Positions 33,356 to 34,495 of a stretch of DNA of 64,000 bases are shown here, piece by piece. Location: NCBI RefSeq assembly GCF_003018115.1, contig NZ_CP027457.1. The stretch is one strand, 5' to 3'. Under the pieces are notes generated by a model. It did no database searches and was not told where the DNA came from. It was given only the letters and a program-made list of their open reading frames with translations. The DNA is from Escherichia coli (lineage in GTDB: Bacteria; Pseudomonadota; Gammaproteobacteria; Enterobacterales; Enterobacteriaceae). Numbering within the stretch: the first letter of the stretch is position 1; every line of letters begins with the position of its first letter. A program made the position numbers and the translations under genes.

Positions 33356-33365
33356 CAAAGTATTG

Positions 33366-33394
33366 CAAAAGTAGATAAAAAGGCATATATTTCG
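33366..33394 (+). promoter_or_regulatory. candidate late promoter PR' (Q-dependent)
   Basis: TTGCAA, 17-bp spacer, TATATT, 10 bp after the Q stop. Confidence 0.35.
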
Positions 33395-33442
33395 TGTAAA
33401 TCTGATATTTTGCCGTTATTATACGTGATGGCAAAGCCACTA

Positions 33443-33470
33443 AAACCCGTGACCGAGCGGGTTTTTTACC
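33443..33470 (+). terminator. candidate tR' intrinsic terminator
   Basis: Hairpin aaacccg-tgaccgag-cgggttt then tttta, about 50-70 nt downstream of the candidate PR'. Confidence 0.45.
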
Positions 33471-33608
33471 CCCCAAAAAATGGCATAGACATTAAACGTG
33501 ATGACGATTGTGCCAATACTTTCTCCATCAATGACGCCCCTTGACTGCATGGAATCCAATTTGTTATGTAATGTGTGTTGATATTTTTGAGTTGTTAATG
33601 GTGTTACT

Positions 33609-34322
33609 ATGGATGACAGTGCTCTGCTCAGAAACTCTTCACTTTTTGTTGCTTATATGGGCTGTCTCGGATGGGGGAGCGCTTATTTCTATGGATGGGG
33701 TACTTCATTTTACTATGGCTTTCCATGGTGGGTTGTCGGGGCTGGTGTCGATGATGTAGCACGAAGTTTGTTTTATGCTGTGACAGTTATTGTTATATTC
33801 CTTATTGGATGGGGAGTTGGTATTGTTTTCTTTTTGGGCATAAAACAAAAGCGCAATATACAAAATTTGAGTTTTATCCGGCTTTTTCTCGCGATATTGC
33901 TGCTTTTTATTCCACCTGTTCTGGAGTTTTCTGTAATTCATCAGCATGTTGAGCCAGATGTACTGATTTTCTGCGTTCTTGCTGCCTTTGCAATCACGCT
34001 TTTTGTCAGGTCTGGAAGAAGACTTGTTTCAGTCAAATGTTTTTCGGAAATGTCTGTTATTCGCCATCACCGAATTGAGTTCATGATGGCTGGGTTTATG
34101 ATTTATTTCTGGGCATTCTCTCTTATTGCCGGTTGGTACAAACCACAGTTTAAGAGGGAATATCAGGCGGTCCACTATGAGAATGTATGGTATTACATTA
34201 TTGCGCGCTATGATGATCGTCTGGTGTTATCGAAATCATACAGGAGTGGGGGTAAGAAATTCGTTATATTTAATAGCGGAAATATTAATGATTTTGAAAT
34301 TAATACTGTCAGAGTACGTTAA
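33609..34322 (+). CDS. hypothetical polytopic membrane protein, AT-rich cargo gene
   Basis: 237 aa, four to five hydrophobic segments rich in Trp/Tyr/Phe; no family recognised. Confidence 0.55.
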   Translation: MDDSALLRNSSLFVAYMGCLGWGSAYFYGWGTSFYYGFPWWVVGAGVDDVARSLFYAVTVIVIFLIGWGVGIVFFLGIKQKRNIQNLSFIRLFLAILLLFIPPVLEFSVIHQHVEPDVLIFCVLAAFAITLFVRSGRRLVSVKCFSEMSVIRHHRIEFMMAGFMIYFWAFSLIAGWYKPQFKREYQAVHYENVWYYIIARYDDRLVLSKSYRSGGKKFVIFNSGNINDFEINTVRVR

Positions 34323-34495
34323 AATTTCCTGAGTAATAAAGATTTTACTGCCCGGCATTGAGCGGTTTTTTTATGCCAGAAAAATGGTGCAGTACATAAA
34401 ATGTGCAGGTGGTTATTAATACCGGTCTTTCAGCTTGCTGGCTTTTTTGACAAGAGTTATTGGTGTGTCACGTTAACCGGAAAAGGGAAAAAGAC

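Follow-up and report, generated by a model that had tools for sequence, protein, structure and literature searches.

What does a lambdoid prophage carry directly behind its Q antiterminator gene when the slot is filled by a single AT-rich membrane-protein gene, and whom does this gene serve? The locus that raises this question lies in a 64,000-nt stretch of Escherichia coli DNA (the window). The ORF at 33609-34322 encodes a 237-aa protein that RefSeq records as a "hypothetical protein" (WP_000342737.1), present in 100%-identical STEC prophages. As the original prediction had noticed, its GC content (39.8%, GC3 36.6%; window 50.8%) is below that of its surroundings: it occupies a dip extending from ~33200 to ~34550 between flanks of 47-56% GC. 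Its homologues form more than 100 protein clusters, and comparison with six diverged alleles gives dN/dS values of 0.06-0.19. A chance ORF was discarded on the basis of these values and of the conservation. The best overall explanation, to which we assign a probability of about 0.35, is a moron cassette with a TfpB-family inner-membrane protein that benefits its carrier through an exclusion-type activity.

The slot is defined by the Q gene, which belongs to the backbone and lies outside the cassette. The following elements precede the cassette:

32684-33355, + strand: Q antiterminator gene, Q82 type (PF06323 Phage_antiter_Q, E 1.5e-90; phrog_304)
33363-33391, + strand: pR'-like putative late promoter, TTGCAA-17 nt-TATATT (9/12 matches in a consensus scan)
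33408-33471, + strand: leader hairpin (33408-33436) followed by an intrinsic terminator, the candidate tR' (RNA fold)

Phage 434 has a "Q82-like" Q that shares 77% identity with the Q protein of the window. Within the intergenic region separating the Q gene from the ORF (33356-33608), the pR'-like sequence is retained both in phage 434 and in L046, a prophage whose slot is empty, and judging from its motif it probably functions as the late promoter. The candidate tR' consists of a stem (33442-33465) followed by six U residues (to 33471). Its fold (-24.1 kcal/mol, z -4.61) was equalled in stability by none of 200 shuffled sequences, while an Rfam scan of the region returned only sub-threshold matches. 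The gene thus sits directly past Q and a credible pR'/tR', where the original prediction had placed it.

Comparison with prophages that share the window flanks (DUF968-rusA-Q on one side, small-HTH-methylase on the other) delimits the cassette:

33446-33520, + strand: left copy of a ~75-bp segment extending from the tR' stem to ...AATACT (alignment to empty-slot L046)
33609-34322, + strand: gene of the predicted TfpB-family inner-membrane protein, ATG start, 237 aa
34350-34424, + strand: right, degenerate copy of the tR' segment, where backbone homology restarts (L046 alignment)
34496-34693, + strand: small winged-helix-like gene, the first backbone gene past the slot (phrog_331)

In L046 the Q gene is separated by 212 nt from the small HTH gene and the ~75-bp segment is single-copy, while in the window it is doubled around the cassette. 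The two copies include a direct repeat (33446-33479 and 34351-34384, 74% identity, spacing 905). The right copy has lost its hairpin (fold z -0.83), and from this copy onward the window is ~88% identical to L046. Megablast homology to many other Q-bearing prophages stops at ~33467 and restarts at ~34360-34362. A terminator-like hairpin is found at 34680-34697, and the small winged-helix-like gene is followed by a DNA methyltransferase gene and then by tRNAs. The same flanks enclose a MazF-like gene in L045 and an unrelated pair of genes (75 and 265 aa) in L047. There is thus strong support for a swappable moron cassette composed of a promoter-like element and one ORF, and for its recombination exactly at tR' into a lambdoid STEC prophage with a Q82-type late operon. 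The locus documents that tR' is a hotspot for cargo in such operons, with cassettes bracketed by terminator copies.

These empty and alternative states bear on the reading that the gene has a late phage function such as the timing of lysis or release in the lytic cycle. It is a same-strand gene of the late operon upstream of the holin region, which agrees with such a function. However, the slot is empty in close relatives, the annotation of the phage 434 record states that variant 434B has the whole region replaced, and intact copies occur without phage genes on plasmids and as solitary chromosomal genes. We consider a late function highly improbable; an essential one was rejected, given the unoccupied slots, variant 434B and the copies on plasmids.

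Two further elements lie inside the cassette, upstream of the ORF:

33541-33570, + strand: promoter-like element with -35 TTGACT (33541-33546), TG (33562-33563) and -10 TATGTA (33565-33570), recognized by motif conservation
33600-33603, + strand: Shine-Dalgarno-like GGTG, 5 nt upstream of the ATG (read from the sequence)

The promoter-like motif, TTGAC-N14-TTTGTTATG, is observed once in the window (0.01 expected) and once per locus in phage 434, E. albertii and six ETEC plasmid loci, in each case 40-41 nt upstream of the start codon. The hexamers and their spacing are constant while the spacer sequence diverges, and the distance to the start codon is fixed despite alleles of only 56-75% protein identity, including those in non-phage contexts. 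The motif is missing from the pINV, Salmonella and iro-iss alleles, and a generic promoter scan misses it in the window; its -10 hexamer, TATGTA there and TATGAG in phage 434, is weak. The cassette appears to carry its own conserved, putative promoter. Counterparts of the Shine-Dalgarno-like sequence are GGGGTGG in phage 434 and GAGG in the ETEC plasmids.

The properties of the encoded protein agree with the aromatic-rich N-terminus and the four to five TM segments of the original prediction. The first 50 residues include 13 F/W/Y. Hydrophobicity identifies four strong segments (~53-77, 88-108, 116-134 and 156-176) and the AlphaFold2 model (pLDDT 80.7, pTM 0.74) five helices (12-36, 47-79, 87-111, 116-137 and 155-180), the first of which is aromatic/Gly-rich, followed by a C-terminal five-strand beta domain of ~55 aa (184-235). 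The predicted layout is a cytoplasmic N-terminus, five TM helices and a periplasmic beta domain; the placement of this last domain is predicted from the helix count and from two strongly positive loops. The domain is itself net positive (10 K/R and 6 D/E), a point against the overall explanation. Conservation is highest from the Trp/Tyr/Gly-rich TM1 through the first periplasmic loop into the beginning of TM2.

The original prediction recognized no family. Profile comparison nevertheless assigns the protein to the uncharacterised Pfam family PF27470 (TfpB) / PHROG 1521 (phrog_1521: E 2.6e-85, residues 17-237), and it is homologous end to end with TfpB of Moraxella bovis and M. lacunata, the founder of PF27470. 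BLASTP against the Moraxella "protein tfpB" P0219 gives 28% identity (E 7e-24, residues 10-232 against 11-240) and P0219 itself matches phrog_1521 (E 2.5e-17). A precomputed PF27470 assignment exists for all homologues of the window protein. Matches in AFDB50 from Glaesserella, Neisseria, Haemophilus, Moraxella and Mannheimia have TM-scores of 0.65-0.81 (E 1e-9 to 1e-14), with 0.77 (E 4e-11) for the M. caprae model. Conserved residues are A25, Y26, W30, G37, W40, A51-R52-S53-L54, R91, G175, Y195-Y196 and F218. The motif positions are invariant or at least 90% conserved among 30 sequences and recur in an alignment restricted to distant members; a profile of these distant members reaches Moraxella while that of alignment A1 does not. 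The window protein and Moraxella TfpB have in common near-full-length homology, the predicted fold and the motifs AY-x3-W, G-x2-W and ARSL. They differ in length, since TfpB has 261 aa and a longer tail, and in context, since tfpB lies inside an invertible pilin locus and the window gene in a prophage late operon without pilin genes. To our knowledge no function has been demonstrated for Moraxella TfpB.

Other searches with the 237-aa protein gave no functional assignment. The Pfam-A scan, with a library older than PF27470, returned nothing (DUF2070, E 2.1), and NCBIfam matched neither this protein nor its Moraxella, ETEC and pINV homologues. The best match in PADLOC-DB 2.0 was not significant (AbiC, E 0.24, 8.9 bits, residues 54-112). 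The PDB yielded nothing by sequence and was uninformative by fold, and no viral fold in BFVD had E <0.09. The matches listed for AFDB50 comprise only uncharacterised family members and remote uncharacterised proteins, the latter with TM-scores of ~0.5-0.6 in alignments over most of the length. No sequence or fold similarity was detected to lambda bor, lom, HK97 gp15 or P22 SieA. The literature collection searched contains no paper on PF27470, Moraxella tfpB or the phage 434 genome record. The "TfpB" of Acinetobacter baylyi, a PilB-like ATPase, is unrelated and was set aside.

The founder of the family suggests that the protein may be a pilin or pseudopilin accessory, binding the hydrophobic N-terminal helices of T4P pilins or T2SS pseudopilins in the inner membrane and so modulating filament assembly; PpdD/HCP and Gsp would be the E. 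coli candidates. Moraxella tfpB sits between oppositely oriented pilin genes and is found facing either way with respect to the complete pilin gene. Pasteurellaceae, Neisseriaceae and Moraxella, the non-enteric hosts of the family, are all T4P-bearing, naturally competent lineages. TfpY/TfpZ/FimB-like proteins offer a precedent: they are similar in size (235-245 aa), anchored in the membrane at the N-terminus and with a periplasmic domain at the C-terminus, and the gene of the TfpY-like prototype adjoins pilin genes (PMC11841053). The ETEC allele adjoins eltAB, whose product is exported by a T2SS (PMC4358887). However, among the loci examined only that of Moraxella has a pilin neighbor: those of Avibacterium, N. 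arctica, P. multocida, A. vicugnae, the prophages and the plasmids lack one. The architecture also differs, since TfpY-like proteins (such as TfpY_PA14, ABJ13791, and TfpZ, WP_023110409) are described as having three TM helices followed by a large mixed beta-sheet domain in the periplasm (PMC11841053), a description that sets them apart from five TM helices and a ~55-aa five-strand domain. None of the 50 AFDB matches listed is annotated as FimB or TfpY. TfpY/FimB-like genes lie beside the major pilin gene, an arrangement that the Moraxella homologue alone shares; the neighborhood of the gene in the window has no pilin gene. A pilin accessory is in our view unlikely. The placement within the Moraxella pilin inversion locus counts against exclusion of phages, since a general role in the envelope would explain it no less well.

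The distribution of the gene was followed in part with a degenerate DNA pattern. Megablast against a phage collection gave no match, phage 434 being found only by tblastn. Conservation in related prophages, on which the original prediction had staked itself, was nevertheless observed, phage 434 among them, at the same position after the 77%-identical Q. Intact alleles occur in phage 434, on porcine ETEC plasmids, on the Shigella pINV and in a decayed iro-iss prophage remnant. On the porcine ETEC plasmids the gene adjoins eltAB in divergent orientation, with STb nearby; on the pINV of Shigella/EIEC it lies between virA and the spa operon; in the remnant, whose lysis gene is a pseudogene, it lies between iroBC and iss. 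All alleles have a GC content of 31-42% and are under purifying selection in all contexts. A host-benefit accessory character is suggested by the intact, selected alleles on the ETEC plasmids, pINV and the iro-iss remnant, and by the replacement of the region in 434B. No neighbor gene is conserved across genera at the 23 non-enteric loci. Many Pasteurellaceae and Neisseriaceae carry solitary, apparently stable chromosomal copies; these too would be explained no less well by a general role in the envelope, and count against exclusion. The idea that the eltAB adjacency is the trace of a common origin in the Q slot was dropped because papers on LT-II prophages place the toxin after the lysozyme gene. 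Among the roles that the original prediction put forward (superinfection exclusion, abortive infection, virulence), virulence is linked to the gene only by association, through the eltAB plasmids, pINV and the iro-iss remnant.

This distribution is the main argument for an envelope or virulence-fitness factor comparable to bor/iss or lom, which would favor lysogen survival on animal mucosa (resistance to serum, antimicrobial peptides or bile, or adhesion) and would have no anti-phage role. Intact alleles reside on mobile elements of enteric pathogens, the remaining hosts (Pasteurellaceae, Neisseriaceae and Moraxella) are bacteria of animal mucosa, and selection is purifying in every context. 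The association with virulence loci may however merely mirror mosaic, IS-rich regions: what pINV and the ETEC plasmids have in common is the ORF with or without the promoter, functional linkage being absent, and family and fold searches found no similarity to known virulence factors. We regard this reading as a serious contender, though a doubtful one.

The scatter of a solitary polytopic protein without partner over chromosomal sites and mobile elements could also be that of an orphan immunity protein whose target would be a toxin acting on membranes (for example a pore-forming bacteriocin, CDI toxin or T6SS effector). The family alignment shows a conserved core and a variable TM3, TM4 and set of loops, as might be expected under this reading. 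No toxin gene was however found near any of the loci examined, immunity proteins against pore formers are typically smaller than 237 aa, and neither Pfam-A nor NCBIfam gave a family match. We judge it very unlikely that the gene is an orphan immunity gene.

The preferred reading remains the exclusion-type moron. More precisely, we propose tentatively that the cassette is a moron that benefits the lysogen at the inner membrane, most likely by excluding incoming phage. Its own promoter would ensure low-level transcription in the lysogen, and after induction Q-modified polymerase would read through tR' and transcribe the gene more strongly. The protein presumably works alone, because no conserved partner gene accompanies it, and would act at the periplasmic face of the inner membrane to the benefit of the carrier cell rather than of virion production. 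It would block an inner-membrane step needed by incoming phage DNA, following a logic like that of HK97 gp15 or P22 SieA. More broadly, and in a conjecture against which we would rather bet, the TfpB family may constitute a widespread but so far overlooked envelope module of one gene, which phages, plasmids and natural transformation carry between Proteobacteria of mucosal surfaces. It would act on a conserved inner-membrane process, either by blocking the entry of phage or foreign DNA or by binding pilin/pseudopilin helices to tune T4P/T2SS output. If so, a single mechanism would be common to the pilin switch of Moraxella, phage 434, STEC prophages, the LT plasmids of ETEC and the Shigella pINV; if the module blocks phage or foreign DNA entry, it would represent a new class of exclusion/defence gene. 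If the family has a defined activity, mobile elements that are among the most thoroughly studied in enteric pathogens (phage 434, STEC prophages, ETEC LT/STb plasmids and the virulence plasmid of Shigella) carry it with no role yet attributed. The anonymous ORF has become tractable, as a 0.8-kb cassette with a putative promoter of its own and natural empty-site controls. Suitable systems are classical phage 434 compared with variant 434B, and the Moraxella homologue tfpB with its link to pilin phase variation.

How does the cassette compare with known systems? Like stx-type Q-dependent cargo, the window gene is on the late strand past pR'/tR', within the variable stretch from Q to the lysis genes, where tRNAs and nanS-p are also carried. 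It differs in being located directly at tR' and not past the tRNAs, in having its own promoter-like element and in persisting without Q on plasmids and in remnants. The original prediction of a Q-dependent cargo slot thus holds for position and not for expression through Q only: because of the promoter-like element and the survival outside a Q context, it captures at most half of the expression logic.

A close parallel is CPT_434_68 of phage 434 ("putative membrane protein", OL657226.1), which fills the equivalent slot behind a Q82-type Q gene with its terminator. The promoter-like motif recurs there at an unchanged distance from the start codon, and the two proteins are 56% identical. The allele is nevertheless diverged (dS ~2) and the downstream genes differ: TciB/DUF3927, a small membrane protein and an esterase in phage 434; the small HTH, the methylase and tRNAs in the window.

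The moron of Hendrix and Juhala is reportedly an insert between otherwise adjacent genes, with a distinct base composition, its own promoter and a factor-independent terminator. The window cassette resembles bor/lom-type morons of lambda in its insertion between neighbors and its base composition. It also has a promoter-like element, with a weak -10, and a 3' terminator-like element, but this 3' terminator copy is degenerate, unlike those of classical lambdoid morons. As for classical morons and exclusion proteins, its gene encodes a membrane protein that lytic growth does not require.

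The 237-aa ORF adds a new member to a family that is catalogued but uncharacterised, and it is carried in the manner of a textbook moron. The observations of the original prediction held and its interpretation held in part; its statement that no family could be recognised did not. The protein matches PHROG 1521 (annotated as unknown function; 2.6e-85), and the Pfam family PF27470, named TfpB, is precomputed on every homologue. A profile of distant members also finds a Moraxella protein with the JGI name 'protein tfpB', which aligns with the window protein over residues 10-232 (28% identity, E 7e-24) and itself matches phrog_1521. 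Family membership is established by these matches. This is a small family, with 56 representatives at 50% identity in a set of 1.84 billion proteins. Its best-conserved stretch runs from TM1 through the first periplasmic loop into the beginning of TM2, with the motif AY-x3-W ... G-x2-W ... ARSL; TM4 and the loops are variable. The family alignment contains no conserved catalytic-looking polar constellation. The window protein has no match in NCBIfam, PADLOC, PDB sequences, PDB folds or viral folds, and the 50 AFDB50 fold matches listed comprised only uncharacterised relatives and remote uncharacterised proteins, aligned over most of the length. Parts of the protein have PHROGs of their own, namely the N-terminal 84 or 154 aa and the C-terminal 78 aa (phrog_17164, 14371 and 3985, matching window 33609-34319). 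Many database homologues are fragments of 120-200 aa, the gene being often split or truncated in sequenced elements; this could reflect pseudogenisation or assembly ends.

The ORF is real and, as anticipated, far lower in GC than its flanks (39.8%, GC3 36.6%, against 47-56% in the flanks and 50.8% in the whole window), the dip extending over about 33200-34550. Its N-terminus is indeed aromatic-rich, with 13 aromatics among the first 50 residues. Four to five TM segments had been proposed: Kyte-Doolittle analysis gives four strong hydrophobic segments, and an AlphaFold2 model (30-sequence alignment as input; pLDDT 80.7, pTM 0.74) predicts five long helices (12-36, 47-79, 87-111, 116-137 and 155-180) followed by a five-strand domain (184-235). 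Loops 80-86 and 138-154 are strongly positive and loop 112-115 is acidic, which suggests for this predicted architecture a cytoplasmic N-terminus and a periplasmic C-terminal domain. A 24-nt tandem duplication within the ORF (33669-33716, + strand, 71% identity) codes for GWGSAYFY / GWGTSFYY, so that a repeated 8-residue unit makes up the conserved aromatic motif of TM1.

The window carries a lambdoid prophage of Shiga-toxigenic-type E. coli. Many STEC chromosomes share with it, at 100% identity, a 1045-bp region that 247 of 5426 complete E. coli genomes contain; in the identical chromosomes the ORF is annotated WP_000342737.1, 'hypothetical protein'. It is preceded by hokD, a relBE-like pair, DUF968, rusA and Q, and followed by a small HTH-like gene, a DNA methyltransferase gene, two tRNAs, a TolA-C-terminal-like lipoprotein gene and more cargo, namely an AraC-like regulator and nanS-p, then the lysis region. 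The features are as follows.

33363-33391, + strand: candidate pR' promoter (TTGCAA-17-TATATT) in the gap after Q
33442-33471, + strand: candidate tR', second hairpin of a two-hairpin leader, then U6 (-24.1 kcal/mol, z -4.6)
33446-33520, + strand: left copy of a ~75-bp tR' segment, by alignment to an empty site
33609-34322, + strand: TfpB-like ORF, 237 aa
34350-34424, + strand: right copy of the ~75-bp segment, hairpin lost (z -0.83)
35942-36017, + strand: phage-borne tRNA, anticodon CAT (Met by ARAGORN, Ile by PGAP)
36027-36103, + strand: phage-borne tRNA-Arg(TCG), after the methyltransferase gene

The ORF had been placed directly downstream of Q and a candidate pR'/tR', and this position is borne out. 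Q is a member of PF06323 (E 1.5e-90) and shares 77% identity with the Q of phage 434, which the phage record labels 'Q82-like'. The 253-nt gap 3' of Q has, as judged from its sequence, the anatomy expected of pR'/tR', and the ORF, 3' of the candidate terminator, would lie inside the Q-antiterminated transcript. In Rfam, the short leader from pR' to tR' (33395-33466, + strand) matches the Salmonella sRNA isrJ below threshold (20 bits, where the gathering score is 37; E 0.8). The match is probably due to chance; isrJ-like sRNAs might be prophage late-leader transcripts.

Several other genes of the region deserve mention. A 142-aa lipoprotein-like ORF (36382-36810, + strand; signal peptide ending ...LTTGC), which PGAP names 'tolA', matches TolA domain III over its C-terminal 90 aa (NCBIfam TolA, E 1.2e-29); this mimic could be a decoy for Tol-dependent colicins or filamentous phages. 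The AraC-family gene between Q and lysis (37506-38231, + strand) is nearest to YdeO/GadX (NCBIfam E 3.3e-34, far under the equivalog cut-off) and may encode a prophage regulator of acid resistance or virulence. Between them lies a short piece left of another DNA methyltransferase gene (37282-37450, + strand), which PGAP marks as a pseudogene interrupted by a stop; it indicates that cargo here has turned over repeatedly. The tRNA sets at the same point in related prophages vary (Ile-Lys-Thr-Gly, Thr-Gly or Ile-Arg-Arg).

When the 2.3 kb from Q to the methylase was searched against complete E. coli genomes, the homology of many prophages stopped at about 33467 and resumed at about 34360. Among prophages that share these flanks the slot occurs in four states, in agreement with its proposed nature as a lambdoid cargo site.

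L046, 2181-2392: empty (Q, 212 nt, then the small gene)
L045, 2374-2775: solitary MazF/PemK-like toxin gene
L047, 2453-3484: pair of 75-aa and 265-aa genes, phrog_3630 (annotated as unknown function)
Window: TfpB-like ORF

The ~75-bp segment, from the tR' stem to ...AATAC, is single in the empty site and doubled around the window cassette, and terminator-derived sequence brackets other cargo variants in the sister prophages too. The tR' site is therefore a hotspot for cargo and for recombination.

The cassette also comes with a promoter-like element. Within the window the motif TTGAC-N14-TTTGTTATG has a single occurrence (33541-33568; 0.01 expected by chance), and it is likewise found once per locus, 40-41 nt 5' of the start codon, in phage 434, E. 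albertii, two metagenome contigs and six ETEC plasmid loci. Hexamers and spacing are kept across loci and the spacer sequence differs; ETEC plasmid homology to the window begins only at 33560. The -10 is weak (TG-n-TATGTA in the window, TATGAG in phage 434) and was not picked up by a generic promoter scan. The motif is absent from the pINV, Salmonella and iro-iss alleles.

The gene is conserved in related prophages, a point on which the original prediction depended: phage 434 has a copy of 56% identity at the corresponding position, 3' of Q and terminator and 5' of TciB, esterase and holin, in a region that its record notes as replaced in variant 434B. It is also independent of a phage context. 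The commonest allele (75% identity) resides on ~75-135-kb porcine ETEC plasmids (L052-L057, 3987-6714), where it is oriented divergently from eltAB at ~870 bp from eltA, close to STb and surrounded by IS elements; well over a thousand assemblies hold it intact. Another allele, of 56% identity and full length (WP_011114760.1, hypothetical; 31.5% GC), lies between virA and the spa operon in 106 Shigella pINV records and EIEC plasmids (L058, 7001-7717; L059, 6001-6717), covering S. flexneri, sonnei, dysenteriae, boydii and EIEC; its upstream region is different and very AT-rich. A role of the protein in the envelope or in virulence fitness is a tentative possibility. A further intact copy (81% DNA identity; L060, 3665-4378) is located between iroBC and iss, within the remains of a decayed prophage in which a frameshift has made the lysis gene a pseudogene; this copy is kept the way iss/bor is. 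A lytic-cycle function of the protein is highly improbable.

The gene stands alone among housekeeping genes in Avibacterium, Neisseria arctica, Pasteurella multocida and Actinobacillus vicugnae, and its site differs in each. Scanning one genome per species with a sequence pattern brought up Aggregatibacter (two copies), Glaesserella, Haemophilus ducreyi, Rodentibacter, Gallibacterium, Conchiformibius, and Salmonella arizonae and diarizonae. No conserved neighbour, hence no conserved partner, was found across genera. Every allele is AT-rich, at 31-42% GC, and shows purifying selection (dN/dS 0.06-0.19).

Expression of the cassette would be dual, with its own promoter serving in the lysogen and read-through by Q at the late stage; the protein would act at the periplasmic face of the inner membrane and benefit the carrier rather than virion production. 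Its most likely single activity, at roughly 30%, would be an exclusion function at the inner membrane, directed against incoming phage or foreign DNA. This is favoured by its nature as a stand-alone membrane moron in a slot also housing a MazF-like toxin, by its retention on plasmids and in prophage remnants, and by its patchy distribution. An orphan immunity protein is an unlikely rival. Nothing about the gene is categorically new in kind; still, for an uncharacterised gene it is unusually widespread, well conserved and open to experiment, and several model mobile elements carry it.

The Moraxella gene raises the question of a pilin or pseudopilin accessory role. It is flanked by oppositely oriented pilin genes, and both orientations relative to the complete pilin gene are seen. 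This fits tfpB, an ORF with no known function that belongs to the tfpQ/tfpI invertible segment. Two ~300-aa genes without Pfam hit are interleaved with multiple pilin copies nearby (L048, 120-1031 and 3500-4387) and may be further pilus-locus genes. For a gene adjoining pilins, the obvious analogues are the TfpY/FimB-like pilin accessory proteins. Their published description gives a large periplasmic domain preceded by three TM helices (PMC11841053), unlike the five helices and small domain predicted for the window protein. For the latter, an accessory role is rather doubtful.
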